From: an uncultured delta proteobacterium
GTDB taxonomy: Bacteria; Desulfobacterota; Binatia; UBA9968
Assembly (NCBI GenBank): GCA_963755715.1
Contig: CAVWLW010000035.1
Coordinates: forward strand, 1 to 53,288
Direction of reading: 5' to 3'
DNA length: 53,288 nt
The position numbers and the translations under genes were made by a program. Every line of letters begins with the position of its first letter. Position 1 is the first letter of the stretch. Positions 1,067 through 30,735 of this stretch are shown here, piece by piece. Below the pieces are notes generated by a model. The model saw only the letters and a list, made by a program, of their open reading frames with translations, did not search any database and was not told the origin of the DNA.

Positions 1067-1123
1067 TCGATCCTTCGAACAAATCCTGTTGAGATTCGAC
1101 CGAAGCGTCGTTCGGTTCAATCC
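1067..1123. repeat. Degenerate copy of the bipartite ATTGAAyTGA-N7-TTCAAw element
   Basis: TGAGATTCG-ACCGAA-GCGTCGT-TCGGTTCAAT aligns with 15693-15725 and 2016-2038. Confidence 0.6.
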
Positions 1124-1299
1124 CAGGTGATTACTGAGCTTGACTCTGTTCTAGCGGACAAAATAGGCCGCGGGCGAGTAGGGAGATAGGCCGCCATGCC
1201 GTGCGGTGTTTGGTGGTCGGAAGATTATTGATGAGTTGGGGGAAAGAGCGATATTGCGACCCGTTTGTAATTTGAAATGCGAGCCGCGTTCGGAGAGGG

Positions 1300-1347
1300 G
1301 CCCAACGGCATCGGCGCCTCCGACGCCGGCTCACTTAAAAGTTAGAT
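1300..1347 (-). mobile_element. Short or degenerate attC-like site
   Basis: Minus strand reads ATCTAAC ... GTTGGGC (RYYYAAC/GTTRRRY) with an internal hairpin, just downstream of the minus-strand gene ending at 1405. At 48 bp it is shorter than a typical attC. Confidence 0.4.
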
Positions 1348-1404
1348 TTCGCGATGAGCATACAGCGGTCACTGCACGCTAAGAAGATGGCGCCTATGTA
1401 AGTC

Positions 1405-1673
1405 TCACGTGGGCTTCACGAACCAAATAGTAGGCGTGCCCTGCACACCAGCGCCTTTCATAACTTCGCGCAGTCGCCGCGACCCCGCAAACGCCTTGGC
1501 CTTGCTTATGCTGGCAAAATCGTGCGAGGCGGTCCGCCGTTTGGTTTCGCCACTGCGCGATAGACCGCGTGCCCCACGACGCCCATTCCTCTGCGCTCCT
1601 CGTCGAACGCGTTGTATGCCCCGCGCCACACGCGATAGTCTCGAACAACGTGCCTGATAAACATTCGAACCAT
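1405..1673 (-). CDS. Small cyclase/ABM-like dimeric alpha-beta barrel protein (one frameshift near 1535)
   Basis: MVRMFIRHVVRDYRVWRGAYNAFDEERRGMGVVGHAVYRAVAKPN joins out of frame to HDFASISKAKAFAGSRRLREVMKGAGVQGTPTIWFVKPT*; G-rich RBS. Confidence 0.7.
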
Positions 1674-1970
1674 TTTGACCCCCCTTACTGAACATCAATT
1701 GAACAAGCTCATCTGCCTTGGTGCCGACATTACGGGCTCGCGCCGTTCAACGCAAACGCTAAGGCTAAGATTTGACTGTATTCTCCATCAACTTAATCCC
1801 GGCTATCCCCTTTCTCTCCGAGAACGGTACTCAAAGAGACTCACGCACATCTTTCACGCTCTCCGCCCTTTTTAATTTTCATTCCCGATACGCCGCCTCC
1901 CGGTTGATGTCCCTCTATTCCATTCCCCCTGCGCCGGCAGATGGGCCGCCATCCGGCGTCAACCTTGGCG

Positions 1971-2040
1971 GGATCGAACTGATGCGTCGATCAACCCAAT
2001 CTCGCATGGCATCATATTGAAGCGTCGCTCAGTTCAATCC
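1971..2040. repeat. Complete bipartite inverted element (two 23-bp sites, 20-bp spacer)
   Basis: GG-ATCGAACTGA-TGCGTCG-ATCAAC (1973-1995) ... ATTGAA-GCGTCGC-TCAGTTCAAT-CC (2016-2040). Confidence 0.7.
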
Positions 2041-2237
2041 TGCGGGGGAGATGTTCGTTGCAGGTATATTCGGAAAATACTGACCAGCTATATTGAAACG
2101 ATGGCTGACGAAAAAATCGATTGACAACTCGTTGATTGAAAACCTAAATTTTGAGGCGCTGTGATTTTTGTAGTGTAGATTGTTTGGGCAACAAGACGGT
2201 ACGGAAATACGAATTTACCAGACGAAAGGTACAAGAC

Positions 2238-3260
2238 ATGAAAATCGCACACGTAGGCGCAGCTCTCACGCTCGTCCTGGCAACAGGTCCGGTGATGGCT
2301 CAGAACGTCAAAATCACTCCGGTCGGTTCACACCCTGGCGAGCTTTGCGCGAACGACCGCGCGACGATATTCGAGGATCCGACGGGTGTGCGAATACTCT
2401 ACGACTCTGGACACACCGTGACCGGCGCGGACGATCCGCGGCTCGGCGACATTCACGTCGTACTACTCAGCCACGCGCACGGGGACCACATTGGGGATCA
2501 GAAGTTGAAGGCAGTGGGTGCCGGCGAGTGCGCGAACTCCGAAAGGGTGCCGGCCACACCGAACTCCACAACGGCGGAAATCGCGGCCGCGAAGAATGCG
2601 GCGATCGCCATGACAACCGATATGGGCACGTTCATTGGCCGCAAAATACAGAACATCCTCGGCAAGCCCGTGGGTCTTTGTCCTCAGACCGCCGGCGTGA
2701 CCAACGTCCCGGTCGCGGCTTCGTGCCGCTCTAACACGCATCTTGGCGGCGTGTTCATCGCAAAAGCCCCGAATGCGGCGCAGGGCGTGGAAATCACCGT
2801 AGTCTATGCTTCGCACGCGAATAATGTACCGCTCTCCCTGCTTTCCGAAGCGCAGCGGGCAAACTTGGCGCCAGACGACACGAGCATCGTTCTTGGACCC
2901 CCGACGGGATATGTGGTGAGATTCACGAACGGGCTCACTGCATATCTCTCGGGCGACACCGGCATACACACTGAGATGAAGACGGTCGTGAACGAGTACC
3001 ACAAGGCAAACCTCGCAGTGCTGAATTTCGGGCCGAGCGCGATGTCCGTGATGTCGGGCGCCTATGCCATGAATGAGCTCGTGCGGCCTGCGTCAGTCAT
3101 TATCAGTCACCCGAACGAGGCGGTAACCGAAGGCGGCAAACTAAGGCCTAGTTCGCGCACAGCCGCGCTCATCAAGCAGCTAAAAGTTACATCCCACCTT
3201 GCCATCAGCGGACGGACGATGGAGTTCGACGGTAAGGGGAAATGCGTCGCGGGATGCTGA
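2238..3260 (+). CDS. Secreted MBL-fold metallo-hydrolase
   Basis: Signal peptide, SHAHGDH motif, YLSGDTG motif; AAAGG RBS before ATG 2238. Confidence 0.9.
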   Translation: MKIAHVGAALTLVLATGPVMAQNVKITPVGSHPGELCANDRATIFEDPTGVRILYDSGHTVTGADDPRLGDIHVVLLSHAHGDHIGDQKLKAVGAGECANSERVPATPNSTTAEIAAAKNAAIAMTTDMGTFIGRKIQNILGKPVGLCPQTAGVTNVPVAASCRSNTHLGGVFIAKAPNAAQGVEITVVYASHANNVPLSLLSEAQRANLAPDDTSIVLGPPTGYVVRFTNGLTAYLSGDTGIHTEMKTVVNEYHKANLAVLNFGPSAMSVMSGAYAMNELVRPASVIISHPNEAVTEGGKLRPSSRTAALIKQLKVTSHLAISGRTMEFDGKGKCVAGC

Positions 3261-3272
3261 ACAGTAGATGAC

Positions 3273-3377
3273 GCCCAACAACGCCTTGCAGCGGACGCGT
3301 GCGAGCGTGGTCGCTTTGTCAGTAAAGCCCTCGTGCGCGGACGCCGTCTCGCGCGCCGCTGAAAGCGAGCGTTGGGC
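3273..3377 (+). mobile_element. Integron attC site (complete, about 105 bp)
   Basis: GCCCAAC (R'') AACGCCTTGCAGCGGACGCG ... CGCGCCGCTGAAAGCGAGC GTTGGGC (R'); complementary R boxes, 12 bp after the MBL stop codon. Confidence 0.85.
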
Positions 3378-3465
3378 GGCAAAAACGACTGAGCCTGTGT
3401 AGGACCTTTTGCTAGGCTGGAGTAGGTGTTCAATCCTTGAGCTGCCTTCGATTCTCAACCGAACC

Positions 3466-5118
3466 ATGCTAACGATTGACGATATCCGAGCAATCCCGTT
3501 GTTCTCGACGCTCGCAATGGCCGAACTCGAGCTGCTCGCGCGGACATCCGCCGACCTGCATCTGGGTGCCGGAGAGTTCGCCGTTCATGAGGGGGGAGAC
3601 CGCGCGCTCTTTGCGGTTCTCGCTGGCAGGATCGAGGTCGTCAAGATGGTTGACGGGATCGAACGAACGCTGGGCTGGCGCGTTCCGGGCACGATTTTCG
3701 GCGAAGTGCCGATCGCCATCGGCACGCCGTTTCCGGGCGGGTACCGGGCGTCAGAGCCCTCGCGCGTTTTGCGCGTGGAGCCGAAGCACTACTACGAGAT
3801 TGCGGCGGCGTCGCCGGACCTCTCTTTGAAGGTTGGTGCGCTCGCACGCGAGCGCCTCGGAGGGCTTCAGGGTATCGCTGCCGAACCGCCCAAGCCGCGC
3901 GTCATCATGATCGGCAACCGTTGGGACAGCGCCTGCAGCGAGTTGCGCCGTTTCCTCGCGCGCAACCAGATCACCTATGACTGGCTAACGCCCGATGCGC
4001 CTGACCTTTCGGCGCGTTGGCCCGGAACGCGCCCATCGGATGACGATTGCCCCGCAGTCAGGCTGGCCGACGGGACGCTCCTCAATCGGCCGGCCACACG
4101 CGACCTTGCCAAGCTTCTTGGGCTTCAAACCAGTACCCGCCTTGCTGAATACGACACCTTGATCATCGGTGGCGGGCCCGCCGGCCTCGCGGCGGCAGTG
4201 TACGGGGCGTCCGAGGGATTGCGTACGGTGGTGGTGGAGCGCGAGGCACCCGGAGGTCAGGCCGGGACGTCTTCGCGGATCGAAAACTATCTCGGGTTCC
4301 CCAGCGGGGTCTCAGGCGATGAACTCGCAAGCCGCGCATTGCAGCAGGCAAAGCGGCTCGGGGCGGAGATTCTGGTCACGCGCTCCGTCGCTCGCATCGA
4401 TGCGAGCACGCGTCAGGTCCACCTCGATGGCGGCGATGTCGTCCGGGCGCGGACCCTCATTCTCGCGACCGGCGTCACATGGCGTCGGCTCGCGATCGAT
4501 GGCTTCGATCGGCTCATCGGCAAAGGCATCTACTATGGCGCGGCACGCAGCGAAGCGAGCGCTACCCATGGACTCGACGTTCACCTCATTGGTGCCGGAA
4601 ACTCAGCCGGTCAGGCCGCTTTGTACTTTGCCAATCACGCACGCACGGTGACGCTTGTCGTCAGAGGTGATTCCCTGGAAAAGAACATGTCTCGCTATCT
4701 GATCGAGCAGCTCGGCGGGAAATCGAACGTGGCGGTCCAACTGCGGTCTGAAGTCGTCGCCGCGCACGGTAGCACCAACTTGACGGCGATCGACATACGC
4801 GACAACGCGAGCACAGAGGTGCGCCGACACGACTGTGGCGGCCTTTTCGTCTTCATCGGAGCCGAAGCAGAGACCGAGTGGCTACCGGAGGAGATCGCAC
4901 GCGATGCACGCGGATATATCCTGACTGGTGATGACGTGGTGAAGGCCGGGCGCTGGTCGCTCAGCCGCGATCCCTACCTCCTCGAATCGAGTGTCCCCGG
5001 TGTTCTTGCCTGCGGGGATGTGAGGTTGAGCCCGGTCAAACGCGTTGCTTCCGCTGTTGGTGAAGGAAGCATGGCAATCGCTTTCATCCACAAGTATCTA
5101 CAGGAGGCCGCGCAGTAG
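3466..5118 (+). CDS. cNMP-binding domain fused to thioredoxin-reductase-like FAD-dependent oxidoreductase
   Basis: N-terminal cNMP domain (FGE motif), GGGPAG, SSRIENYLGFP, GAGNSAG, GDVR..KRVASAVGEG; no CxxC (YYGAARSEA). Confidence 0.92.
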   Translation: MLTIDDIRAIPLFSTLAMAELELLARTSADLHLGAGEFAVHEGGDRALFAVLAGRIEVVKMVDGIERTLGWRVPGTIFGEVPIAIGTPFPGGYRASEPSRVLRVEPKHYYEIAAASPDLSLKVGALARERLGGLQGIAAEPPKPRVIMIGNRWDSACSELRRFLARNQITYDWLTPDAPDLSARWPGTRPSDDDCPAVRLADGTLLNRPATRDLAKLLGLQTSTRLAEYDTLIIGGGPAGLAAAVYGASEGLRTVVVEREAPGGQAGTSSRIENYLGFPSGVSGDELASRALQQAKRLGAEILVTRSVARIDASTRQVHLDGGDVVRARTLILATGVTWRRLAIDGFDRLIGKGIYYGAARSEASATHGLDVHLIGAGNSAGQAALYFANHARTVTLVVRGDSLEKNMSRYLIEQLGGKSNVAVQLRSEVVAAHGSTNLTAIDIRDNASTEVRRHDCGGLFVFIGAEAETEWLPEEIARDARGYILTGDDVVKAGRWSLSRDPYLLESSVPGVLACGDVRLSPVKRVASAVGEGSMAIAFIHKYLQEAAQ

Positions 5119-5173
5119 CACTGACGAGCACGGTAAAGCGTATGCAAGCCTCGCGGGTCGAAGGTGCTGCGCC

Positions 5174-5198
5174 CGGCCGCTGATGGCCATCGCTAGCC
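5174..5198 (+). mobile_element. attC 3'-half remnant
   Basis: CGGCCGCTGATGGCCATC-GCTAGCC resembles an L'/R' end (one mismatch to GTTAGCC), downstream of the 5118 stop. Confidence 0.4.
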
Positions 5199-5203
5199 GT
5201 AAG

Positions 5204-5226
5204 ATTGAACTGAATTGATCTCATAA
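5204..5226. repeat. Half copy of the bipartite element
   Basis: ATTGAACTGA-ATTGATC-TCATAA lies directly after the attC remnant and directly before the IS110 end. Confidence 0.5.
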
Positions 5227-5472
5227 ACGGAATGGCGTTCATGGCGGTTATGTCGTAAGGGATGTGACAATACCGTCAGGAAAGGAGCCATTCAATGGAG
5301 CTTTGCAGGAGCAGATCTGCACAAACGAGTAACACAGTTGGCTGTTCTCAGAGATGGGCAGCCGCCGTCACAGTTTCGTTTCCCCAACGATCCGAAGACC
5401 GTTCAGGCGGTTTTAAGGAAACTCCCCAGAGGGACAAAAATAGCGGTCGAGGCCACGGGTTCGTGGTGGAAC
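5227..5472 (+). mobile_element. IS110-family remnant: non-coding end plus truncated, frameshifted transposase N-terminus
   Basis: AAGGAG RBS and ATG 5295; FAGADLHKRVTQLAVL...TKIAVEATGSWW matches the IS110 RuvC-like N-terminus (GxDxHK...xEAT). Similarity stops near 5470. Confidence 0.8.
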
Positions 5473-6851: not shown

Positions 6852-7244
6852 ATGAAGACAACACTCTCAACCGTCATACTTGGGCTGGTTCTCTTATTCA
6901 CCGGCGCCGCGCAGGCACAGTTATACGATGTCTACTATTATTGGGACGGCGCTCAGTACCAGCAGTATTGGCCGCAACAATATGATCTATACCCGTATGG
7001 CAACACAAATCAGTATCCGGAACAGTTATACGACCCGTATTACCAGTTACACGTTGTGCACTACCAGCTGTATCTACCGCAGTACCAGCCTTATTTTTAT
7101 CAATCCTGCTGCTTTGCCGGAGGCGTTGTTATTCCGGGACGACCAATACGAGGCAGACCGGCGAGACCAGGTGGCGTCGCCTTGTGGCGATCGTCACGGT
7201 TGCCACCGGTAGTCAACCAGTTTGCGCCAAATAGACGCCGTTGA
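6852..7244 (+). CDS. Secreted Tyr/Gln/Pro-rich hypothetical protein
   Basis: Signal peptide (AQA), low-complexity YQP region, GGAG RBS. Confidence 0.65.
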   Translation: MKTTLSTVILGLVLLFTGAAQAQLYDVYYYWDGAQYQQYWPQQYDLYPYGNTNQYPEQLYDPYYQLHVVHYQLYLPQYQPYFYQSCCFAGGVVIPGRPIRGRPARPGGVALWRSSRLPPVVNQFAPNRRR

Positions 7245-7491
7245 GCGACGTTCAATCTAACGGACTCTGATCGGTTGATTTCGCGCTGGACGCAGAACAG
7301 CAGCAAAGGAGGGCAATATGGCTGAAGAACCTCAAACAGAGCAACTCTCGGAGGAGATTAAGACATTGATTCGGGGCGCTAACTTCGGTGACCTCGCAAC
7401 GCTGATGCGCGATGGAGCCGCAAAAACAAATTGGTATTGCAATTCGAGGCCGCGTGCGGAGCGGGCGAATAAGGTGATTAGGTGACGAAAG

Positions 7492-8493: not shown

Positions 8494-9786
8494 TCAACGG
8501 TTGGCGACCTTGGCGCTGCCGTAAGTCACGCGATAAACGGCGCCGGCGTGATCGTCGGAAACCAGCAGCGATCCGTCTTTCATCACCTGCACGTCGACCG
8601 GCCGGCCGCTGTATTCGTTGTTCTGCAGAAAGCCGGTGAGAAACGGCTCCTGGGATTTTACGCTGCCGTCCTTGTTGAGCTTCACGACGATGACATCGCC
8701 GCCGATCTTCTTGGTCCGATTCCAGGACCCGTGGCGCGCGATGAAAATCGCGTTCTGGTATTGGCTCGGAAACATTTTGCCGGTGTAAAAGCGCATGCCG
8801 AGCGCGGCCGAGTGCGGCCCGAGCAGGGCGACCGGTTTCTCGAACTCGTCGCATGAGCGACCCCAGCCCAATTCTCGATCGGTAAAGTTTCCTTGGTGGC
8901 AATAGGGGAAGCCGAAATGTTGGCCGACCTTGGTGACTCGGTTGAGCTCGTCTTCGGGAAGGTCTTCCGATAACCAGTCTCGTCCATTGTCGGTAAAATA
9001 AAGTTCCTTCGTCACCGGGTGCCAGTCGAATCCCACCGAATTGCGCACGCCGCGGGCGGCGATCTCCGCGTTGCTGCCGTCGAGGTCGATCCGCCGTAGG
9101 TGCCCGTTAGTCGCCGGCGGTTCGCAGATGTTGCAGGGCGAGCCGACGTTGACGTAGAGCTTGTTGTCGGGTCCCAGGGCCATAAATTTCCAGCCGTGTG
9201 ATTGATGATTTAGAAAATCACTGTAGATGACGACGGGCTTAGGCGGATTTTCCAGATTGTCTTCGATGTTTTCGAGCTTGGAAATTTTAGTGCCTTCGGC
9301 GATATAGAGCGCGCCCTTGTAAAAAGCTAGACCGTTGGGCCGATCCAGTCCCGAAGCGATGATCTTAGTTTCACGTTTGCCGTTTTTTTCGACGACGGCG
9401 TAAACTTTGTCGAGCACGCGGTTGCTGACAAATACGGTTCCTTTGTCGCCGAGACGCAAGGAGCGGGCGTTGGCGATGCCGCTCGCAAAGACGTCGACTC
9501 TAAATCCATTGGGAACCTTGAGCTGTGCGGTTGGCAACTTGTCCGCTGCGGCGCCGAAGGGCAGGGGCGCGACGTTGCGCAGTTGCTTGGCGACTTCGGC
9601 GTTGGGGATGTCGGGCCGTCCGGGCACGGTGGTCGGTTGCGGCTGCAAGGTCGGCATCGGCTGCGATGCCTCGGGAGCCTTGCTGGGTTGCTCGCCGGTT
9701 TGCTGCGCAAAAACGGGCGGCGCGAGCAGGGTGGTCAGAATTCCGGCAAATAAGAGGTGCGCGCGCTTGGACAATGGCGTGATCAT
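8494..9786 (-). CDS. PQQ-dependent glucose/sorbosone dehydrogenase family protein
   Basis: Signal peptide; GSPCNIC, GVRNSVG, TDNGRD, HGSWNR, GRPVDV beta-propeller motifs. Confidence 0.92.
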   Translation of the reverse strand: MITPLSKRAHLLFAGILTTLLAPPVFAQQTGEQPSKAPEASQPMPTLQPQPTTVPGRPDIPNAEVAKQLRNVAPLPFGAAADKLPTAQLKVPNGFRVDVFASGIANARSLRLGDKGTVFVSNRVLDKVYAVVEKNGKRETKIIASGLDRPNGLAFYKGALYIAEGTKISKLENIEDNLENPPKPVVIYSDFLNHQSHGWKFMALGPDNKLYVNVGSPCNICEPPATNGHLRRIDLDGSNAEIAARGVRNSVGFDWHPVTKELYFTDNGRDWLSEDLPEDELNRVTKVGQHFGFPYCHQGNFTDRELGWGRSCDEFEKPVALLGPHSAALGMRFYTGKMFPSQYQNAIFIARHGSWNRTKKIGGDVIVVKLNKDGSVKSQEPFLTGFLQNNEYSGRPVDVQVMKDGSLLVSDDHAGAVYRVTYGSAKVANR

Positions 9787-14446: not shown

Positions 14447-14544
14447 AAATCTCCCCTCGCCCCTCTTTTTCAAAGAGGGGAATGAATTTTCTCAGATCAA
14501 AACAGAGTCCCCCTTTTGGCAAAGGGGGATTTAGGGGGATTTTT
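14447..14544. repeat. Intergenic double-hairpin (REP-like) element
   Basis: CCCCTCTTTTTCAAAGAGGGG and TCCCCCTTTTGGCAAAGGGGGA hairpins within outer inverted repeats. Confidence 0.75.
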
Positions 14545-14587
14545 TAGGAAGACCTCGATCCAAAATTCCCTACGGGAGAAAAACGAC

Positions 14588-15571
14588 ATGCGAGCAAAGT
14601 TGAAGCTAAACATTCTCATCAGCCTTTTAACCGTCGTCGGCCTTGTTGCCAAAGCAGAAGCCAGAACGGTGAACGTCGCCGTGCCCACGCTCAGCATGGT
14701 GGTGATCGCCTTCACCGCCGCTAAAGAGAAAGGTTACTATCAGGAGGAAGGTCTGGATGTAAATTTGGTCGTCATGAGAGATACCCTCGGCATATCCGCG
14801 CTGATCGGTGGCAACGCGGATTTCGCTTCGATGAGCGGCGCCGGATTTACCGCGATCCTCGGCGGGGTGCCGCTGCGGTTCGTTTTTAGCAGTTTTTTTC
14901 GGCCCATGTTTTGGCTCTACGCCAAGCCGGAGTTTCAGGACATCAAAGCCCTCAAAGGAAAAAGGATCGGCGTGACGGGTCTCGGCAGCGGCCCGGACAA
15001 TCTCCTACGCGAGACTCTCAAGCGCAATGGCCTCGAAGGCGGCCGAGACGCGACGATCCTAGCCTTGGGCTTGCCATCGACCGTCGCGACTGCGCTTCGC
15101 GCCGGGACGGTGGACGCCGGCACGATCAGCCCGCCGTTTAATTTCATGGTGAAAGAGGCGGGATTTCGCGAGCTGGTGTCGTACCTGAAAGAAGATTTCG
15201 TCGAGCTGCAAGGAAGCATTCTGACCCATGAAAAAATCCTTCAATCCGATCCTGCTTTGGTCGAAAAATTTGTCCGCGGCACCGTAAAGGGGCTGCGCTA
15301 CGCGAGAGAAAACAAAGCCGGGACGATTCCGATCTTACTCCGCTACATGAAACTGAAGGAAGATCTCGCGGGACAATACTACGATCAGGTGCGGCCGATC
15401 ATGACCGCCGACGGAACCGTCAGCGTGGAGCTACAAAAAAAATACCTCGACCAAGCGCTCAAAGTTTTGGCGCCCAAAGAGTCCCCCGCAGTGGAACGGA
15501 TCTATAATTATTCCTTAGCGCGCAAAATCAATGCTGAGTTGGATGCCGCCGGATGGAAGCCGGGGCGATAG
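14588..15571 (+). CDS. ABC transporter substrate-binding protein (NMT1/THI5-like)
   Basis: Signal peptide, AKEKGYYQEEGLDV, LKGKRIGVTGLGS. Confidence 0.9.
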   Translation: MRAKLKLNILISLLTVVGLVAKAEARTVNVAVPTLSMVVIAFTAAKEKGYYQEEGLDVNLVVMRDTLGISALIGGNADFASMSGAGFTAILGGVPLRFVFSSFFRPMFWLYAKPEFQDIKALKGKRIGVTGLGSGPDNLLRETLKRNGLEGGRDATILALGLPSTVATALRAGTVDAGTISPPFNFMVKEAGFRELVSYLKEDFVELQGSILTHEKILQSDPALVEKFVRGTVKGLRYARENKAGTIPILLRYMKLKEDLAGQYYDQVRPIMTADGTVSVELQKKYLDQALKVLAPKESPAVERIYNYSLARKINAELDAAGWKPGR

Positions 15572-15658
15572 TGAAACCCTAACTCAGCTCGATAAAAACA
15601 CGATTATCTCGGTGAGAGAGTGAAATCCGGCGAATACGAGACGGCATCCATGTCACCA

Positions 15659-15725
15659 ATTGAATTGAGTTCTCCTTCAAAGCCCACTTCCGTGAGATCG
15701 GAACTGACGCGTTGTTCAGTTCAAC
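15659..15725. repeat. Complete bipartite inverted element
   Basis: ATTGAATTGA-GTTCTCC-TTCAAA, 21-bp spacer, ACTGAC-GCGTTGT-TCAGTTCAAC. Confidence 0.7.
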
Positions 15726-16031
15726 GCTGCCATAGAAATTCCGCATAAAGGCGCGGACATTGCCCGGACAGCTTTGGAAAAGCGCTTGCAGCGATCCAAG
15801 TTAGAACGGACCACGTGATTACCAATCAAAGGCGCCTGACCTAACTGAGCGAAAAGCATTGAGCAATGGCGGACTCGAAGAACCGACAAAGACAGGGGTC
15901 TATTTCTAGCGCGGAAGCCGTGAATAGCCGAAGCGCATATCAATTGCGTTCACGAAACAATGAATTCACTGCAAGCGGTCGGATGCCTGTGACCTGCGAC
16001 AGGGAATGGGCACTGAACTGAAATCTCGGGA

Positions 16032-16367
16032 TTACTTCTTGCCGGATTTTTTCTTCGCCGCCCAATACGCCTTCAATTTCGCCGACAACTTCGCTCGGGT
16101 AGCCGTACTGATTACGGTCTTTTTGGCCGCGGGTCTGGCAGAAACGGTCGCCGGTTTCGAACTTCGAACCTTTGCCCACCTTGCTTTTTGAGTAGCCGCA
16201 ATCTTCTTTTTCACAGAAGCGCTCATGGTCCGATTCCTCGTTGGCGCAGCTCGCGATGTAGCCTGCGCACCGAGGATGCCGCGCAGCTGTTTGTTCAGAC
16301 CATCGATTCGCTCCTTGATCGAGGCAGCACGCTTTAGTTGCTGTGGTGTAAGGTCAAATAGGTTCAT
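16032..16367 (-). CDS. Small Lys/Ala-rich basic protein, putative DNA-binding
   Basis: GGAGG RBS, N-terminal coiled coil, two SxxxRxKIxxxxKxxWA-like repeats. Confidence 0.8.
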   Translation of the reverse strand: MNLFDLTPQQLKRAASIKERIDGLNKQLRGILGAQATSRAAPTRNRTMSASVKKKIAATQKARWAKVRSSKPATVSARPAAKKTVISTATRAKLSAKLKAYWAAKKKSGKK

Positions 16368-16441
16368 GTCGGCAGTAGACCTCCAAAGCGATTCTATAGC
16401 AAGGCAAATATCCGGTTTCGTACTCTCCCGTCGTAGGTCTT

Positions 16442-16867
16442 TTAGAGTTTGATAGGATGCACCTTCCCGTTGATGATGAGCAGCGGCTCCTGGCGAAAAC
16501 GACCCAGCGATATCCTGACGTTCACGCCATGGTTTTTTAGCCTGCGATATATTGGCCAGAGTTTTAGATATCGTTGAAAGTAAGTCTGTGCCGCCTCGCC
16601 GTAAACGCCTTCGAGAATCTCCAAGAGGTCATTAGACGCTTGAGCGTCTCGGTCTCCGAAGTTACGGGGATCAAGATTATAGGGTGCTGTGTTTTCGGTG
16701 TCCGCCAAATTGCCTAACGAGTGGTCATCTGAAGGGGAGCTAGCAATACGATGATGCGCTCGCCTGGCGGTTCGCCTATTGTGATCAAGAACCCGTACTA
16801 GGAACCAAATCAAGGCAAGGACAATTCCAATTCGATGTTTTTTGGTCATGATCATCCTAGAAACCAT
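16442..16867 (-). CDS. Hypothetical membrane-anchored protein
   Basis: N-terminal hydrophobic helix in a 141-aa ORF; start may be near 16855. Confidence 0.5.
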   Translation of the reverse strand: MVSRMIMTKKHRIGIVLALIWFLVRVLDHNRRTARRAHHRIASSPSDDHSLGNLADTENTAPYNLDPRNFGDRDAQASNDLLEILEGVYGEAAQTYFQRYLKLWPIYRRLKNHGVNVRISLGRFRQEPLLIINGKVHPIKL

Positions 16868-17198
16868 AACGCTCGAATCGCAATTCCCTCGGTGTCAACG
16901 AGCGTGGTCCTGGAAGCTTCTGCCACCCGATGGACCGGACCTTAGCACAGGGAGGGTGCTTGAACCAGTTTTGTTTTTGACGCGCGCCATATTCTCTACG
17001 GCATAATCGTATAGATTTTGTAGCGTTCCTCTTTCCATGCAAACTTTATCGAGTCCATCGCCGGCAAGGGCGGAGTGCTGTAACCACAGCGCACGAACAC
17101 CTGCATGAATTGCCGGCGCCTCCACAAGGAAATCGTTCACTATTGATCAGGCTAGCCAAAAGGCGCACCTGCCTCTTGAGGTGGTCACCAACGCTGGC

Positions 17199-18363
17199 CT
17201 ACTTCCCGTTTAGATGGAAGAACTTCACGGCGTTGCCGGCCAGCATTGCGTGCTGCTCTTGTTCAGGCACCCCGACAAATTGCTCCTGCACCAGGTTTTT
17301 TGATTCGGGCCAACGAGTGACGATATGCGGAAAGTCCGTGGACCACATGATTCTGTCAACACCAATGCGATGACGTACGTCGACGCCAAACGGGTCATCC
17401 CAAAATCCCCAGTGTGCATGCTCTTTGAGATACTCGCTGGGCAAGCGCGAAAGCCGTTTGAGCCCCAATAGTCTCTCCGCCCAGGAACAGTTGACTTTAT
17501 ACGCTTGATCCATTTGCTGATAGAAGTACGGAATCCAGCCAATATTATTTTCCGCCCAGTAGATTTGTAGCTTCGGGAAACGGTCGAAGACTCCGCTTAA
17601 AATCAATTGTACGGCTTCTATAGCGCCGCAGTGAAATATCCCGTGACGGGCGATGCGCTCGAGAAAATCCACGGGCCGCTCTTGGCCCTCGGGCTCAGTG
17701 GGATATTTCATTAGAAAATGATCACGCCCGCGGTATTGCCTGGGGAAGGAGGTATGAATGGTCAGCGGCATGTCGAGATCGAGGGCTGCGGCCCAAAACT
17801 TGTCGTCTTCCGGAGTCGGAAAACTCTTACCGCTTGGAAACGTGTGCAACCGAACGGCTTTAAATCCTTTCTCCTTGCAGCGTCTCATTTCAGCGATGTC
17901 TTCGTCGACGCCGATATCGGGCAGGACGGCGACGCCCACGAGCCGATGCTGGAGCCACGCCGCAGTATTCCTCGATGAAATAATCGTTGAATCCTTGCAC
18001 GATCGCGAGAAATGCGGCTTTATCCGGGATCGCCGGATTGCGCGCTTCGCTCGCGAAGAGCAGCTCCGCATCAATGCCGTCCTGATCCTGCTCCTTCAAC
18101 CGTTGTTGCGGCGGCCCCGCGCCGACAGCGTGGTCGAAATCCAGTCCCACCGGGGAAAATGTTTCCAAAGGTTTCCCGGCGAACTGATTGGTTCCCCTGA
18201 ATGTAATTGGCCGTCCCTCTTCCACGATGATGTCATTGCCATTAGGTAATTTGACCCGGCGCGGAGCGCGTTCGCGGTAGGCCTCGGGAACTCGGTGCGT
18301 CCACATATCCGGCGGGCACTCGAAATGGCTATCGGCAGAAAAATAGCGATATTGCTGAACCAC
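17199..18363 (-). CDS. Amidohydrolase_2 family protein (one frameshift near 17950)
   Basis: SADSH, EQDQDGIDAE, PLTIH, FDRFPKL, WSTDFPH; two overlapping ORFs; GGGAGG RBS before GTG 18363. Confidence 0.88.
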
Positions 18364-18601: not shown

Positions 18602-19789
18602 CTAACGCGGCGTCTGCAACCAACGCTCCGGTTCAAGCCCGGGACGATCTTTGTACTTTTCCGCGATGGCGCGTACGTTCGGATGATCCGCGGCAGTGAT
18701 GCGGCCATTTTTATAGACGTATTCATCGCCGATTTTTAGTTCCCCGCCGCGTAACTCCGCAGAGATATGCATCAGATAGGGAAATTCCTTGGAGCGCCGG
18801 CTATTGCCCATATGAAAATGAAAACTGCTCCAGTGATGATGCTCGATGAAATGACGATAGGGGGCGTTGGGGCACTGATGCGGTTCGAGCATCGCCGAGG
18901 GATGGACACCGCCGTGAAAGCCGCGGACTTCGTAGGCGGCTTCACCCAAATATTCGGCAATAAATTTATAAAAGCGCGTAAGCGTTTCGGCCTCTTCGCC
19001 GCCTTCAAATTTCTTAATGTAGCCTTTTTCAATGAATACCTTCACTGGCCGCTTGAACGGGCACGGCACGCCGATGTGACGCGCCCAGATGACACCGACC
19101 TCGTTGATTATTCCCACCCCTTCGGCGTCGCGGGCCCGAATCGACGACCAGACGCCTTCGGGAAAGGGACAGTAAGGTCCGATGTCACGGTAGTGTGCAT
19201 AGTCGTCCATCTCCTCGGGTTTGACGACGTAGCCTTCGATATGTGAGCCGTTGGGATGAGTCATGACCCATTTGCTGCCAGGTTTTGCTAGGGCACAAGC
19301 CTGCACACGGATCTCTGAAACCAATTCATAGGGCGTCAGCCCCCAATTACTCGTCAGCAGGGACGCCGTGGTGGCCATGTTTCTTGCGTAACGGATATTC
19401 CGTTCTTCGAGTATGTCGGGAATCTCACGCAACTCCTCTTCATACGTCAGATCCACGGCATGGCTGATGATCACGTCCGCCGCGCGCATAGCGCTGGCCA
19501 CAACCGGCGGCACGCGCCATGCTTTGCTCGGATCGGCGCCATTGCCCCAGAGCACCAACGGACGGTAGGGGATATCACACCAAACAACCGTCGCATCAGC
19601 GCCTCGTTGGACAACAGCATCGTGCACCCAAGCTACGGTTTCTCGATCGACAATGTTAACACCTCCGTAAAGACCGTCGTTGGCAGCGACGATAAGCACA
19701 TTCATGCCGGGTTTGACCGTGGCACAGTTGTCGACCAAGTCTGCTACGGCGATGGCGGCCTGCTTTGGAATAAGTGGCATTGAGCTCAC
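18602..19789 (-). CDS. M29-aminopeptidase/NicX-fold metalloprotein of unknown function
   Basis: CATVKPGMNVLIV start, FPEG, VFIEKGYIKKFEGGEEAETL, FHGGVHP, MHISAEL; resembles the NicX C-terminal half from memory. Confidence 0.65.
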   Translation of the reverse strand: MSSMPLIPKQAAIAVADLVDNCATVKPGMNVLIVAANDGLYGGVNIVDRETVAWVHDAVVQRGADATVVWCDIPYRPLVLWGNGADPSKAWRVPPVVASAMRAADVIISHAVDLTYEEELREIPDILEERNIRYARNMATTASLLTSNWGLTPYELVSEIRVQACALAKPGSKWVMTHPNGSHIEGYVVKPEEMDDYAHYRDIGPYCPFPEGVWSSIRARDAEGVGIINEVGVIWARHIGVPCPFKRPVKVFIEKGYIKKFEGGEEAETLTRFYKFIAEYLGEAAYEVRGFHGGVHPSAMLEPHQCPNAPYRHFIEHHHWSSFHFHMGNSRRSKEFPYLMHISAELRGGELKIGDEYVYKNGRITAADHPNVRAIAEKYKDRPGLEPERWLQTPR

Positions 19790-25679: not shown

Positions 25680-25919
25680 TTGACCGACGAACAAATAGCT
25701 CAAGCCTGGGCAAAGCACCATCCTGAACACCGCGCAGACAAAGTGTCAGAGCATGTGTGTCGACTAATTTGTCTCTGCATCGATCTTCGCGTCAAAGCAG
25801 AAATCGCGGGCGGCGATACTGCGAGCAGACTTGATCGCGTTTTAGCTAATATGCGAATCCCCAAAAAAGAGTTCGACGACCTAACGAACACCTACGGATC
25901 TTTAATTGTTGCCCATTGA
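25680..25919 (+). CDS. Hypothetical protein
   Basis: AAGGAG RBS before TTG; 79 aa. Confidence 0.55.
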   Translation: MTDEQIAQAWAKHHPEHRADKVSEHVCRLICLCIDLRVKAEIAGGDTASRLDRVLANMRIPKKEFDDLTNTYGSLIVAH

Positions 25920-25932
25920 GTCTGTAAGGACG

Positions 25933-26025
25933 TTCGAGTTCATCATCAATCTGAAAGCGGCCAAGCAGATCGGTTTGACGATTCCGCCGAATGTGTTGGT
26001 GCGGGGGGATAATGTGATCAAATGA
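25933..26025 (+). pseudogene. 3'-end remnant of an ABC_sub_bind (PF04392-type) binding-protein gene
   Basis: FEFIINLKAAKQIGLTIPPNVLVRGDNVIK*, the characteristic C-terminus of the family; no upstream part. Confidence 0.85.
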
Positions 26026-26105
26026 GGGCCGTGCGAGGCAAGTGGGTAGAGGCAGAGAAAAAGACTACTGAACTCTTAAACAGTCAAGAAAAACTCGGCA
26101 AGAGC

Positions 26106-26624: not shown

Positions 26625-27337
26625 TTCGGCACACCGAGACCTTTCCACCAAGCAGAGGAACGCAAATGCGACACCAGCGCGGCGATCGGCGAATCAACCG
26701 AGGTGAAATTTTGGGGCAATCTGCCTCCCAACCAGCAGGCCAAGAGGGCCCCGACGATCGCCAGAAGCAGAGTGGCAGCTAACGTGAAATTTTGGCTCTC
26801 CTGTGCGGCCTTTTCGATATAACCTATTCTATGCTGCAAGCTCTTTTCGAGATTGCTCTTAAAAGCCGCATGTTCCCTGAGTAGATAATCCACTAGCCGC
26901 TCTTTCTCCTCCCGGTAGCGGCTTTCCGCATAGGGCTGGTTCTTTCTTATATACTCGACTTCCCTTTCGAAAAGTTGCTGATATTGTGCGTGATACTCTT
27001 CGGTTTGGGACAAGCGTTGTACGGCATCGGCTGACGTGGCCAGCGTTTTCAATTGATCCATACGACGCTCGAAGTCGGCTTTGAACTCCTTATATTGCTC
27101 GTAGTGCACGGCAGCCTGTGTGACGCTGAATTTGCCACCGTACCTGACCTCAGATAAAAACGCGTCCGCCAGTCCGTCTGCTTGATCGATCATGCGTTGT
27201 TCGATGCTAACCGCGATATGCGCTGCAGCGCTTAGCCTGCCAAGCTGTATTATCGAGTAGCTAGAAACGGCCACCATGAAGGTGAGCATTGCCGAATAGC
27301 TGATGACAAACCGGCGAAGCGTAGGGGTTAACATCAA
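26621..27337 (-). CDS. Membrane protein with a four-helix periplasmic sensor domain and no kinase module
   Basis: TM, about 160-aa helical domain, TM, short tail; translationally coupled on both sides. Confidence 0.7.
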   Translation of the reverse strand: MMLTPTLRRFVISYSAMLTFMVAVSSYSIIQLGRLSAAAHIAVSIEQRMIDQADGLADAFLSEVRYGGKFSVTQAAVHYEQYKEFKADFERRMDQLKTLATSADAVQRLSQTEEYHAQYQQLFEREVEYIRKNQPYAESRYREEKERLVDYLLREHAAFKSNLEKSLQHRIGYIEKAAQESQNFTLAATLLLAIVGALLACWLGGRLPQNFTSVDSPIAALVSHLRSSAWWKGLGVPK

Positions 27338-29760
27338 AGCTCTCCTTCGGTGTACCTGTATGGTGCGATCAACTCAGTAGCTGTCTTGCTCGGCTTAAGA
27401 TCGTCGACAGAACCAACCGGTGCGCCAACCGGTATACGTACGGTGAAAGTTGTTCCTTCACCCAGTTTACTTTGCACGGTGACTATTCCCCCCAAGACTT
27501 CGACGAAGCTCTTGACGACGTAAAGGCCAAGGCCAGCGCCGGAGAAGTGTCGTGTGGTGCTACTGTCTATCTGACGAAATTTTTCAAAGATGTACGGTAA
27601 AAACTCCTCCGCGATCCCGATCCCCGTATCTCTGACGCAAAATTCGACCGCTGCCTGATCGGCGAGGGAGCAGACACAAACATCAACCGAGCCCTGATCA
27701 GTAAACTTGATCGCGTTATTGATGAGATTGATCAGCACTTGCCGAAGTTTCATACGATCGCTCAAAACTTTCGGCAAACCAGTCGGAACATGCCAGTTAA
27801 CCGCCACGCTTTTTTCCCTCGACACCATGGCATAGTCGGATTCTAGTTCTTCGACTAATTGATAAATATCGATCTGTTCCGCGTTAACTGTGACGATTCC
27901 CGTCTCGATCTTGGTGATTTCCAGGATCCCATTGATGAGCGACAGCAGGTGACTTGACTGCGTTCTGATCTTTTCGGTGACTTTCTCGTGTTCCGGGGTG
28001 ATCTCGCCGAACACCCCCATATTCAGTGCTTCAGCGCTATTCATGATGATGTTAATCGGCGTGCGCAGTTCATGGGACATGACGCCTAGAAACTCATCTT
28101 TGATCCGGTTTGATCTCTCCAGCTCAGCTGCCTGATTTTTGGTCTGTTCGTAAAGGCGAGAATTGTAAAGCGCAATGGCAGCTTGCTGCGTGAGATCTCT
28201 GAGAAAATCTTCCTCCTCTGTTCTTAGATCAATCGCTTCGGTCGAATAAAATGACAGGACACCTAACACGTGATCCCTAACGACTATCGGCAAGCCGAGG
28301 TAAGTAACGAATCCCGCGCTGCGTAGGGAAACCGGATCGGAACTCCGCGGATCGCTCTGCACGTCGGCGATCAACAGGGGAGACTGAAGCTTGAAAACTT
28401 CCTGAGGAAGGCCCCGTTCGCATTCCGTCCTAGACCACAAACTGGTCGCATCTTGGCCCGCCGGATACGCGATCGGCTCGAGTGTGCCGTTTTCATTGAC
28501 CCAGCTGAGAGCGATACAGGAAGAGGGAAACAAGTTGGCGACTCCCTCGAGGAGAGCCTTCAAAACGTTGCCAATGTCGAGGCTCGAAGTCATCGCTGCG
28601 CTGATCTGATGGATGGCACTTTGTCGGAGGTGCTGCTTTTGAATCTTCGTCTCGGCCACTTTGGCATCTGCCGCACGCTGCTCCAATGCTTTGGCCAATT
28701 CGTCAAACGTCCGGGCTAAATGACCGAGTTCGCTTGCGCCGTAAGGCAGACTGGTACGCGCTTTTAAATTTCCTGAGGCCAGTTGCTTGGTTGTGGCCAT
28801 CAGATCGCGGACCCTTCGCAGTACGAAGAGATCGGCACCAAACCAGGCTCCGATCAAAGTCAGGACAGTGAGCACGCCGACGATAATAAGATTTTGCCGT
28901 AGTATGCGCTCAGCTTCGGCAAATGCTGTCCGGACCGGAATCTCAATCCCGGCGTACATAATGTTACCGGCTATCCGGTGGTCCAGTTGCCGATAAGTAA
29001 TCAGACGGGCGACTCGGTCGCTGCCGACAGATTCGATATTTCCTTCGACCCCACGAATGACCGTGGGACCACGGGAAACACCAATATGAATTTGTGTTCC
29101 GAATGAATCGACTGTGTCCGGGTGCCGGAGAAATATCTTGCCGCTTTCATCGAAGAAGATAGATGAAGCTTCGGAAGGGAGATGATTTTGAGCGGTAATC
29201 CGAACGATCCAGGAATAGTCCAGGACTACAAACGCGACACCCTGAAGTGCGCCAGAGGAACTTGTGATCGGAAATCCAAATTGAATGACCGTCTTGCCGT
29301 TAGAACTGTCCTTTTGAATCTCACCTACCGAAAACTCCCGGGTCTCGAAGACGCGTAAGATATAGGGATCTTGCAGGCGCACGCCTTTGAGGGAATGGGG
29401 GCCAAGCGCACTGCATAGTAGGTTACCCTTGAGATCGATTACGCCCAGATCGACATAAAGGGGCTCCAGCAACCCGGCGAGAATCTTCTGGCATGCGACA
29501 CTGTTGTGTTCACGAATCTGCGGCAGGCGGGCCAGCGTAATGAGAAGCTGATGGGCATTCTCGAAAATACGGCGCTGCTCAGTGGCGATAACACGGGCGG
29601 ATCCGAGAGCGCTCTTTTGCACCTGAGCAGCAATGGAACTGCGGTGTCTTTGGTCGGTAAATAAAATGACGCCGAAGGCTGGAATAACGGCCAGCAGAAC
29701 GAAGGCGATTGAACGAGCCCGCAGGCTGGAGACAAACGGCATCATTTTTCGTCCATTCAA
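27334..29760 (-). CDS. Sensor histidine kinase (Cache-HAMP-GAF-HisKA-HATPase)
   Basis: Two TMs, HAMP (SELGHLARTFD), GAF, MSHELRTP, NAIKFT, DTGIGI, GAGLGL. Start may be 29742-29745. Confidence 0.93.
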   Translation of the reverse strand: MNGRKMMPFVSSLRARSIAFVLLAVIPAFGVILFTDQRHRSSIAAQVQKSALGSARVIATEQRRIFENAHQLLITLARLPQIREHNSVACQKILAGLLEPLYVDLGVIDLKGNLLCSALGPHSLKGVRLQDPYILRVFETREFSVGEIQKDSSNGKTVIQFGFPITSSSGALQGVAFVVLDYSWIVRITAQNHLPSEASSIFFDESGKIFLRHPDTVDSFGTQIHIGVSRGPTVIRGVEGNIESVGSDRVARLITYRQLDHRIAGNIMYAGIEIPVRTAFAEAERILRQNLIIVGVLTVLTLIGAWFGADLFVLRRVRDLMATTKQLASGNLKARTSLPYGASELGHLARTFDELAKALEQRAADAKVAETKIQKQHLRQSAIHQISAAMTSSLDIGNVLKALLEGVANLFPSSCIALSWVNENGTLEPIAYPAGQDATSLWSRTECERGLPQEVFKLQSPLLIADVQSDPRSSDPVSLRSAGFVTYLGLPIVVRDHVLGVLSFYSTEAIDLRTEEEDFLRDLTQQAAIALYNSRLYEQTKNQAAELERSNRIKDEFLGVMSHELRTPINIIMNSAEALNMGVFGEITPEHEKVTEKIRTQSSHLLSLINGILEITKIETGIVTVNAEQIDIYQLVEELESDYAMVSREKSVAVNWHVPTGLPKVLSDRMKLRQVLINLINNAIKFTDQGSVDVCVCSLADQAAVEFCVRDTGIGIAEEFLPYIFEKFRQIDSSTTRHFSGAGLGLYVVKSFVEVLGGIVTVQSKLGEGTTFTVRIPVGAPVGSVDDLKPSKTATELIAPYRYTEGEL

Positions 29761-30045
29761 TTGACCTCAGTTCAATACAAACGCTGCGCCACGGAATTCA
29801 GCGGAATTCAGGTAAGATTCTGAATTGAAAGAGTTGTTAGAAATTATTAGTACGGGAACAAGATGACAAAAGTTGGTACACATGCGCGCGGTAGGGAATA
29901 GAGCAAACGTGCGTATCGGCCGCGTACAAGCTAAAGTCTCAAAACCCGGAATCCTGGTTTGTGATTAACCTGAAAAACTGCGAAGCAGATCAGCCTAAGA
30001 TTCCACAGAGAGTGCTGACGCCGGCGAATAAAGTAATCAAATGAC

Positions 30046-30082
30046 TCAGGTCAGAGATCAGAAGTCAGAGATCGGAAATCAG
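30046..30082 (+). repeat. Heptameric tandem repeat
   Basis: TCAGAGA-TCAGAAG-TCAGAGA-TCGGAAA-TCAG. Confidence 0.6.
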
Positions 30083-30124
30083 GACGGAAGCAATGACTCT
30101 ACGAGAGCGGATAAGAGTGATTAA

Positions 30125-30411
30125 GTGAGTAAAGCAAGCGAATTGGCGACCATTGAGCAGACAGTCCATGTTTTTGAAGCGAATGGGTTTGCGTTGGCTG
30201 AGCGTCGGCGCGTTCAGCAGGTGACCGCCACCAGTCTTGCCGAGTTCGCTAAGCGGAACGCAGATGCGCGCGGACACCTCTGTTGCGCTGATTTCAGATT
30301 CGGGCTTTCGGAAGGGACAGGTAGCGATCGAGCGGTCGGCTGCTCGCGAGCGCATTCCCATACCTGTTATGGAAGTCATCCGAGCTCCTGGTTTTTCAGA
30401 GCGCTGCCTAA
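30125..30411 (+). pseudogene. C-terminal remnant of a class I methyltransferase cassette gene
   Basis: VFEANGF...SLAEFAKR / RADTSVALISDSGF..GQ / ELLVFQSAA*; frameshifted; the stop TAA lies within GCCTAAC. Confidence 0.55.
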
Positions 30412-30473
30412 CCCGCGCTTACAGACAGGCGGCGCTTTGTGCGATCGTGAAGCGAAGCGGCTGAAGCGCACAC
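30406..30473 (+). mobile_element. attC site truncated just before R'
   Basis: GCCTAAC-CCGCGCTTACAG ... GCGGCTGAAGCGCACAC, followed by AAGATTGAACT in place of GTTAGGC. Confidence 0.7.
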
Positions 30474-30504
30474 AAGATTGAACTTTCTAATTGCAGCCCA
30501 AATG

Positions 30505-30649
30505 TTTGTCCGCCTTTTGTCCGCGTACCAGAAACAACAAGCCCCAAGAACTGCCGGTATAGGCAGCGCTCGGGGCTTGGTTTTGTTGGGCTTTGACGGC
30601 GGTTTTAGGATCTAGTCACGATTGATTTTTGAATGGCATTCAAGTGGTC
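30505..30649 (+). mobile_element. att-like end of an integrative element containing a tRNA-Ala(GGC) anticodon-arm fragment
   Basis: TTGAATGGCATTCAAGtGGTC (30629-30649) matches the tRNA-Ala GGC anticodon arm; preceded by a TTTGTCCGC direct repeat (30505, 30516) and an AAGCCCC/GGGGCTT hairpin. Confidence 0.6.
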
Positions 30650-30712
30650 CGACTTCCGTTCTGGCTAACCGACGATTATTTCAGATCCGATCGTTGAAGC
30701 CAGCACTCCAGG

Positions 30713-30735
30713 ATTGAATTGATTTCTCCTTCAAA
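30713..30735. repeat. Half copy of the bipartite element overlapping the rnr stop codon
   Basis: ATTGAATTGATTTCTCCTTCAAA, 22/23 identical to 15659-15681. Confidence 0.7.

Follow-up and report, generated by a model that had tools for sequence, protein, structure and literature searches.

A repeat with the layout of two adjoining tyrosine-recombinase core sites borders single-gene modules in soil bacteria

Contig CAVWLW010000035.1 of an uncultured delta proteobacterium (GenBank assembly GCA_963755715.1; Desulfobacterota, Binatia, UBA9968) carries copies of a dispersed inverted element, which a first-pass annotation made from the sequence alone had described as a bipartite, ~66-bp candidate recombination site. 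The whole contig, 53,288 nucleotides (nt) long, is called the window here; it is contig C35 of the source genome (G000), a 7.4-Mb draft of 76 contigs with 56% G+C. Judged by sequence comparison, the element is probably a pair of adjoining tyrosine-recombinase core sites that border single-gene modules and are served by a Xer-like enzyme, with the copies in the window as relics of such borders. The sequences quoted in the annotation are all present in the window at the positions it gave.

The anatomy of the element was read from a large set of copies. A profile of seven genomic copies, scanned over the whole source genome with nhmmer, found 21 places at E < 0.001, three of them in the window, and a covariance model (R1) built from 13 copies was applied to this genome and its relatives. 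Model searches of 849,305 bases of arrays returned 117 matches, 114 of them distinct, and the anatomy counts rest on these 114. Their consensus is atgCtAgGATTGAAcTGA ATTCTCCa tCnAcnaaaTCc tGt gAgATttgactGa nGCGTCGT TCAGTTCAATCc. Information content is highest at both outer arms and in two adjacent 8-nt spacers, and the inner arms are weaker copies of the outer ones; the composite unit of about 78 bp therefore consists of two abutting 13-8-13 sites, S1 on the left and S2 on the right, with 13-bp inverted arms (consensus GGATTGAAyTGA/TCArTTCAATCC). The annotation had divided each half into a 10-bp arm, a 7-bp spacer and a 6-bp arm, which was essentially right and is refined by the larger set to a 13-bp arm, an 8-bp spacer and a 13-bp arm, twice over. 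The right-hand spacer that it had found conserved, GCGTYGY, corresponds to the S2 spacer nGCGTCGnn, with GCGTCG in about 100 of the 114 copies. The S1 spacer, nTTCTCCn, occupies at least 104 of the 114 left halves, and a GCGTCG-type spacer stands there in only two.

Each half also occurs by itself, as solitary, perfectly symmetric 13-8-13 sites exist for both spacer types. The two types alternate in a regular order: in all sequence examined, where loci partly overlap, S1 is followed by S2 within 30–60 nt in 92 of 107 cases and S2 by S1 within 0.4–2.5 kb in 78 of 93. A reversed-sequence control for this grammar gave 4 and 1 matches, against 274 and 147 in real sequence. Folded as a single strand, the unit forms an outer stem, a symmetric 8 × 8 bubble and a short inner hairpin. 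The RNAalifold consensus keeps only the outer 9 pairs with one compensatory pair, and covariation is uninformative either way.

Three full copies and one half copy lie in the window, all on the plus strand. Copy 1 (1053–1127; nhmmer 1071–1126, E 1.2e-7; model 64.5 bits), which the annotation had placed at 1067–1121 as left-degenerate, does have a degenerate left half and an intact S2, with its inner arm at 1091–1103, spacer AGCGTCGT at 1104–1111 and outer arm TCGGTTCAATCCC at 1112–1124. It overlaps the 3′ end of a methyltransferase open reading frame (ORF; 58–1092, assigned by Pfam), whose homology with congeners stops at 991, ahead of the repeat. Copy 2, 0.9 kb from copy 1, spans 1965–2044 (nhmmer 1965–2043, E 1.3e-19; model 70.2 bits) upstream of a metallo-β-lactamase (MBL)-fold ORF (2151–3260). 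It is atypical in having an S2-type spacer in both halves, being one of the two among the 114 with GCGTCG on the left: its left site has the outer arm at 1970–1982, spacer TGCGTCGA at 1983–1990 and inner arm at 1991–2003, and its right site the inner arm at 2008–2020, spacer AGCGTCGC at 2021–2028 and outer arm TCAGTTCAATCCT at 2029–2041. Copy 3 (15651–15731; nhmmer 15659–15724, E 3.6e-9; model 66.8 bits) is a canonical but diverged S1+S2 unit that starts 79 nt past the stop codon of an NMT1-type binding-protein gene (14516–15571). Its S1 comprises an arm at 15656–15668, spacer GTTCTCCT at 15669–15676 and an inner arm at 15677–15689; its S2 has the inner arm at 15695–15707, spacer CGCGTTGT at 15708–15715 and arm TCAGTTCAACGCT at 15716–15728. 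Copies 2 and 3 are the two that had been reported as complete, at 1973–2038 and 15659–15725.

The half copy is a lone S1 at 30710–30743 (nhmmer 30707–30738, E 0.007; model 22.5 bits, E 0.008) that matches a 21-nt family pattern exactly, with arm AGGATTGAATTGA at 30710–30722, spacer TTTCTCCT at 30723–30730 and an arm-like part beginning TCAAATC at 30731–30743. This last part overlaps the stop codon of the RNase R gene (rnr, 30731–32947, minus strand). The lone S1 marks the edge of the patchwork region, as congener homology of rnr ends at 30765–30784, 22–41 nt away. Of the partial copies that the annotation had listed, this one at 30713 stood and the other four did not. The one at 5204 was recovered at E 0.79, which is not significant alone, as a possible decayed remnant (5198–5244, minus strand) with the centre motif and a TCAGTTCAAT arm and no spacer; 7242–7279, 29754–29776 and 30477 gave no match at nhmmer E ≤ 10 or covariance-model E ≤ 1. 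The first two of the four could be decayed remnants, and 29754–29776 and 30477 each come down to a 9–10-mer; the 10-mer TCAGTTCAAT has 27 occurrences genome-wide where 8 are expected. Measured against shuffled sequence, a comparison the annotation had proposed, the right-hand core GCGTYGYTCRGTTCAAY is in clear excess in the window (3 matches against 0.00 expected from 100 shuffles), as is the arm pattern ATTGAAYTGA-N8-TCA (5 against 0.11). The annotation had also noticed no copy in the 31–52-kb core block, and the covariance model agrees, with none beyond 30.8 kb at E ≤ 1.

Copies elsewhere in the source genome lie in arrays. On contigs C54 (40.9–52.1 kb) and C61 (59–67 kb), all copies are on one strand and 0.8–2 kb apart, with same-strand ORFs between them; two further such co-oriented arrays are present in relative G019 and two in G018. 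The modules between the repeats are of mixed content. The commonest are PF04392 ('ABC_sub_bind') solute-binding genes, and others encode TENA/PQQC-like, SnoaL/CaMKII_AD-like, methyltransferase, glyoxalase, MgtC, TIR-methyltransferase, GNAT and cyclase proteins; some module genes have no Pfam match. An open frame of 100 codons or more on the same strand ends no farther than 150 nt upstream of the repeat in 64 of 115 non-redundant copies. As a side observation, PF04392 is a large paralog family in the source genome, with 31 tblastn matches longer than 150 amino acids (aa) on 12 contigs (seven on C34 and five on C10), most of them with no adjoining repeat.

A link to an enzyme comes from loci where a gene lies inside the pair of sites. 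In the congener G019 (contig C11) and in a contig titled Pyrinomonadaceae (L058), a tyrosine recombinase gene stands between the two halves in the order outer arm, S1 spacer, leader of about 75 nt, gene, stop codon, S2 spacer and outer arm. A scan of metagenome contigs then yielded 80 loci encoding relatives of this recombinase, mostly 76–89% identical. The S2 spacer and arm directly follow the stop codon in 36 of the 37 loci with enough downstream sequence, and in the 37th S2 lies at the edge of the stretch examined. Of the 37 loci that extend far enough upstream, 22 have the arm and S1 spacer at most 135 nt ahead of the gene; 10 of the remaining 15 have S1 at 710–865 nt upstream, with an extra 148-aa ORF between. 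Altogether about 40 soil metagenome contigs hold the gene between S1 and S2. Further co-oriented repeats accompany it in 48 of the 80 loci, and a PF04392 gene in 34.

The intact protein has 300 aa and matches PF00589 (118 bits) and the SAM-like N-terminal domain PF02899 (55 bits); it shows the motifs ARLRE, HxLRH and RYLH. It scores below the cut-offs of both the XerC model (207.6 bits, cut-off 335) and the XerD model (204.4 bits, cut-off 330) and is thus a Xer-like paralog, not XerC or XerD itself. The source genome has no close copy in a protein-query search, and among the 60 relatives a copy at 66% identity or more was found only in G019 and G045, the other matches being housekeeping Xer genes at about 36%. 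In G045 (66% identity) no clear S1 lies upstream, and the contig ends before any S2. The annotation had placed the recombinase elsewhere than in the window, and the gene is indeed found in other genomes, between the halves. Since it sits there between the same S1 and S2, the composite 78-bp unit would be those two ends joined; the annotation's view of the element as a recombination site or joined ends is thus supported, by comparison, through the anatomy of the sites, the arrays, the breakpoints described below, this gene and the lack of a close copy of it in the source genome.

Shared blocks between genomes end at the repeats. In a set of 20 blocks (92–99% identical, 300–4000 bp, both ends internal, not all independent), 37 of the 80 endpoints fall within 25 nt of a repeat, compared with 2.6% of bases, which bears out the enrichment at synteny breakpoints that the annotation had asked about. 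At base level, identity gives out at one of three places: the S1 spacer/inner arm, the S2 spacer and the outer end of S2. Two modules are ordered A-B on C61 of the source genome and B-x-A on contig C12 of G018, with the breaks in the sites, and a TENA module (98% identical) is found in two different contexts in G019, with a single S1 upstream and a composite site downstream. In the window, homology with congeners is lost directly after the NMT1-type gene that precedes copy 3: four congeners diverge from its stop codon onward, and the 96%-identical congener G001 alone retains the copy.

The repeat family was detected with the covariance model in 24 of 61 genomes (the source genome and 60 relatives): 19 of 30 congeners (0–43 copies each), 3 of the family's 6 other genera, one genome out of 5 in a second family and none out of 19 in a third. 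The tallies for IntI, the repeat, the insertion sequence (IS) recombinase discussed below, the Xer-like gene and window homology include the unpublished genome G005, and those for IntI and the Xer-like gene also G035; neither underlies any sequence-level claim. An exact-pattern scan of a species collection gave at least 111 stretches and, among the matches listed, most were in soil records titled Candidatus Binatia or 'uncultured delta proteobacterium'. Full-length copies recognized by the model are also present in contigs of metagenome-assembled genomes (MAGs) titled Pyrinomonadaceae, Blastocatellia, Verrucomicrobiia, Actinomycetota and Limnocylindrales, and in a Chloroflexia-titled contig of 1.76 Mb. 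Single pattern matches in five unrelated organisms were not confirmed by the covariance model.

These observations allow us to propose how the sites may work. Directly oriented sites stand at the borders of single-gene modules, most of which are orphan PF04392 solute-binding genes. Tyrosine recombinases rely on homology between the spacers of partner sites; because the two spacers differ, each site should recombine only with its own kind, S1 with S1 and S2 with S2. A module would leave as a circle with one composite site when two like sites recombine, and this circle could integrate at any of the other copies. An S2 × S2 event and then an S1 × S1 event would swap a module between replicons. 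We infer that catalysis is by the 300-aa Xer-family recombinase, the likely enzyme, whose gene lies between S1 and S2 in what would be autonomous copies. The three full copies and the half copy in the window are most likely the inert remains of former module borders in an array that is decaying. They look like relics because the source genome has no such recombinase, because half sites are present and because PF04392 gene-end remnants remain. One remnant, ending in NLKAAKQIGLTIPPNVLVRGDNVIK and a stop codon (25909–26025, plus strand; tblastn 76% identity over 38 aa, E 7e-14), is of the gene type that usually precedes the repeat and has no repeat left beside it; the second, ending RVLTPANKVIK and a stop codon (29958–30044, plus strand; tblastn E 0.21, sequence read), is weak.

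Two known arrangements resemble this proposal. Acinetobacter pdif sites, in the passages of PMC13141974 that describe them, are 28 bp long, with an 11-bp XerC arm, a 6-bp spacer and an 11-bp XerD arm in alternating orientation; according to the same passages, dif modules rearrange only between sites whose spacers are identical or nearly so, and two successive events at flanking sites can replace a single module. An IS family that targets pdif sites is mentioned in part of PMC10132070. As far as these passages go, both systems have gene modules bounded by Xer-type sites and an IS that targets the sites. Unlike pdif sites, the present ones have 13-8-13 geometry and near-palindromic arms, share one direct orientation and fall into two fixed spacer classes that alternate; there is also a dedicated recombinase gene, and the sites are chromosomal and found in several soil phyla. 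The two conserved spacer classes and the breakpoints at sites appear to fit spacer-limited exchange, and the S2-module-S1 layout would, by analogy, allow a dif-like two-step replacement of modules.

The second arrangement is Cre/loxP. The lox site is 13-8-13, and heterospecific lox pairs that differ only in the spacer permit exchange without excision between unlike sites. Such pairs resemble the repeat in geometry and in having two site types, differing only in the spacer, that flank a segment. Unlike them, the present sites are natural, multi-copy and carry gene modules, and the enzyme is Xer-like, not Cre; the likeness is one of geometry.

Several observations weigh against a site-specific system for moving modules. 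Neither recombination products nor circles nor clean empty sites were seen. The copy-3 locus, aligned with five congeners, showed no clean empty site and no target duplication; a single-module locus on C59, compared with three congeners, gave a vague pseudo-site with no clean empty site or target duplication either. Tandem PF04392 genes with no repeat have short, unrelated spacers, and a search with right-flank motifs found real matches only beside repeats (one-mismatch patterns were too loose), so that the empty-site alleles the annotation had proposed to look for did not appear at any of these places. Among Logan contigs, those of the cyclase module end at its two repeats in four studies, and some contigs join the two repeats across the module, with sides of only 21–33 letters in repeated sequence; these ambiguous results were counted neither for nor against excision. 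Few of the genomes with the sites have the recombinase as well: G018, with its 43 repeats, lacks a close copy, and G045 has the recombinase and zero copies of the repeat by the model. Both of the copies initially seen to lie between the halves are damaged, that in G019 by a stop codon and that in L058 by a 27-aa deletion. The enzyme could be just another passenger module, as a methyltransferase is also found in that position between S1 and S2. Lone S1 sites outnumber S2 sites about two to one, which the simple model does not predict. Some of the cross-phylum matches lie on short binned MAG contigs and are possibly mis-binned. Finally, 39 of the 115 copies follow the end of a PF04392 gene, and the flanks beyond the arms are conserved too, so that part of the spread could be paralog duplication and not site-specific movement.

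The main rival explanation, which we consider unlikely, also draws on this last association. It takes the repeat for a non-autonomous derivative, like a miniature inverted-repeat transposable element (MITE), of an IS-like element, 1.1 kb long, with the gene for the Xer-like recombinase. The repeat would insert in its entirety at a preferred target close behind PF04392 genes, and the arrays would then be tandem paralogs, each hit separately, with no shuffling of modules. The long repeat does share its ends with the recombinase-bearing unit, whose interior is missing from it: an arm with the S1 spacer and the S2 spacer with an arm also frame the recombinase gene. As with MITEs, these are short units with inverted ends matching a rarer gene-bearing unit, and orphan copies far outnumber recombinase genes. 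The 39 copies behind PF04392 genes follow a C terminus ending ADKVIK and a stop codon, typically at 20 nt. However, a MITE should leave target-site duplications and empty sites in relatives, and neither was found at the copy-3 and C59 loci, among the tandem PF04392 genes or in the flank search. Congeners cease to be homologous to the window on either side of the copies, and homology does not resume after an 80-bp insert. Unrelated genes occupy both kinds of interval, S2 to S1 and S1 to S2, module order differs among genomes with the breaks in the sites, and the inner arms resemble arms and have no obvious origin in the interior of the recombinase unit. In contrast to MITEs, moreover, the gene-bearing unit encodes a tyrosine recombinase and not a DDE transposase, each end is a complete core site, and the units bound gene modules in arrays.

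It is far less likely that the copies are integron attC sites in integrase-less clusters (CALIN) served by IntI. Like attC sites in CALIN, the repeats consist of two inversely related simple sites 3′ of single, co-oriented, functionally unrelated genes, the outer boxes exceed the inner ones in conservation, most arrays have no nearby integrase and the sites attract mobile elements; when folded, both have paired outer arms, an unpaired bubble and an inner stem. CALIN are defined in a passage of PMC4889954 as at least two same-strand sites within 4 kb that separate co-oriented ORFs, and the co-oriented arrays on C54 and C61 and in G018 and G019 have this spacing.

The resemblance is incomplete in the details of the sites. 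The R″ and R′ cores of attC are RYYYAAC ... GTTRRRY, and the family cores, ATTGAAy (or ATTGAAC) and GTTCAAT, fit this consensus at six of seven positions each; the fourth position deviates in about 100 of the 114 copies. The extrahelical bases of attC come from unequally spaced halves, whereas here both consensus spacers are 8 nt, so that there is no length asymmetry and the fold bubble is symmetric. The 13-bp arms, too, set the repeat apart.

Nor do the repeats keep company with IntI. An intI pseudogene is present in the source genome on C45, but that contig holds no copy of the repeat. There are zero copies in 180 kb around four intact intI genes of three congeners, and the integrons at those genes carry canonical GCCTAAC ... 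GTTAGGC sites. Across the 61 genomes, intI scores above the family cut-off in 11, and its presence is uncorrelated with that of the repeat: G018 has 43 copies and no IntI match, and G006 and G008 have IntI and no copies. The linked Xer-like recombinase lacks the IntI-specific insertion, no attI link is seen, and the gene lies inside the site pair, not at the head of an array.

The pseudogene itself (G000:C45:103717–105090; loci L002/L016) matches TIGR02249 in three pieces (250.6, 151.6 and 35.4 bits), with a frameshift near residue 240 and an 87-aa GIY-YIG-like ORF between its LLGH and DVSTTMIYTHV motifs. It has no adjoining cassette array, and the upstream ORF is carbonic anhydrase-like by eye only. 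Separately, tandem 9-bp periodic arrays (GTTCAAnnC, at least four times) adjoin the intact intI genes of two congeners, at L030:433–487, 918–974, 1246–1300, 18291–18336 and 19481–19608 and at L033:1226–1264, 1705–1763 and 8841–8954. They form inverted pairs about 450 bp apart alongside ordinary attC sites, and the hexamer GTTCAA is common to them and to the arm of the repeat family.

We give equally little weight to the idea that the sites are the attachment sites of a 2.5-kb IS, and not of the Xer-like enzyme. This IS encodes a 278-aa recombinase, which fits the IntI model except in its IntI-specific part, and an IS91-type Y2 transposase; a preprint (10.1101/542381), in the part concerned, describes IS91-borne recombinases as the closest IntI relatives and as lacking the insertion of IntI. 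The IS abuts the TCAGTTCAATCC arm at the boundary with the spacer in eight distinct insertions, six in S2 and two in reversed S1. It is present in the source genome (C54 and C42) and in 11 pieces in G018, the most repeat-rich genome. Other copies, however, have other flanks, and the IS interrupts sites and is not framed by complete ones. G019 (28 repeats), G017 (12) and G025 (11) have no match to its recombinase at E ≤ 1e-30. Because this recombinase is found in 12 of the 61 genomes and is absent from several repeat-rich ones, we take the IS for a parasite of the sites, not their keeper.

The copy on C54 (L009:9068–11364; G000:C54:45064–47363) has its transposase split in two frames and that on C42 (L014:7024–8959) its recombinase split, so that both may be defective. 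On C42 (L014:5013–6401, also L268), the exact interval between the IS91-type element's left end and a truncated S2 holds, on the opposite strand, a group II intron reverse transcriptase/maturase gene, and the same sequence also abuts the left end of the IS in G015 (contig C9). Some group II introns target integron attC sites.

A reading with no recombination at all, in which the element is a 3′ hairpin of PF04392 transcripts (a terminator or mRNA stabilizer) or an operator bound by a regulator, is highly improbable. Behind many PF04392 genes the repeat does lie on the coding strand, 0–25 nt past the stop codon, and canonical copies fold well (−14 to −18 kcal/mol with DNA parameters, z about −4.7). 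Yet no T-run follows the hairpin and Rfam has no match, the most conserved bases are two unpaired, non-complementary 8-mers, and the element also follows unrelated genes. The recombinase gene nested between the halves in about 40 contigs, the two kinds of mobile element inserted exactly at the arm/spacer boundary and the breaks of synteny at the copies all speak against it as well. Two other candidates were dropped: repetitive extragenic palindromic (REP) sequences or REPINs with a REP-associated tyrosine transposase (RAYT), as the nine Y1_Tnp matches in the source genome all lie apart from strong copies (the closest one is some 2 kb from a lone S2 on C23), and 3′ tRNA fragments, as ARAGORN returned no gene from the window and Rfam, at the gathering threshold, no match.

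Two further features were observed in the window. A ~140-bp element with a terminator-like hairpin (30507–30649) is single-copy in the source genome and has one or two copies at 82–92% identity in many congeners, once within the array on C11 of G019. A 1.06-kb block (16032–17090) has a 98%-identical duplicate at G000:C42:32243–33301; it contains two small ORFs with no Pfam match, and each copy of the block lies 0.3–1.6 kb from a copy of the repeat.

More tentatively, and at somewhat less than even chances, the repeat and its enzyme may form a new soil-bacterial system in which a dedicated Xer-family recombinase and paired heterospecific 13-8-13 sites excise, insert and swap single-gene modules, and which would span genomes titled Candidatus Binatia and, by present labels, Acidobacteriota, Chloroflexota, Verrucomicrobiota and others. 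No account of a system like this was found in the full-text literature, subscription journals and supplementary files being outside the coverage of the search. Integrons and, more recently, dif modules are the known bacterial ways to file single genes behind short recombination sites. A third system, set apart by its own Xer-like enzyme, two fixed spacer classes and a spread over uncultured soil phyla, would show that this strategy has evolved more than once; it would be an integron analogue that arose independently of IntI and a naturally occurring equivalent of recombinase-mediated cassette exchange, and it would provide, for testing, two orthogonal sites from nature in compact form together with their enzyme. 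For the window, it would account for the breaks of synteny with relatives at these places. More broadly, it would account for some of the patchwork seen in the gene content of these large soil genomes, among it the expanded set of orphan solute-binding proteins.

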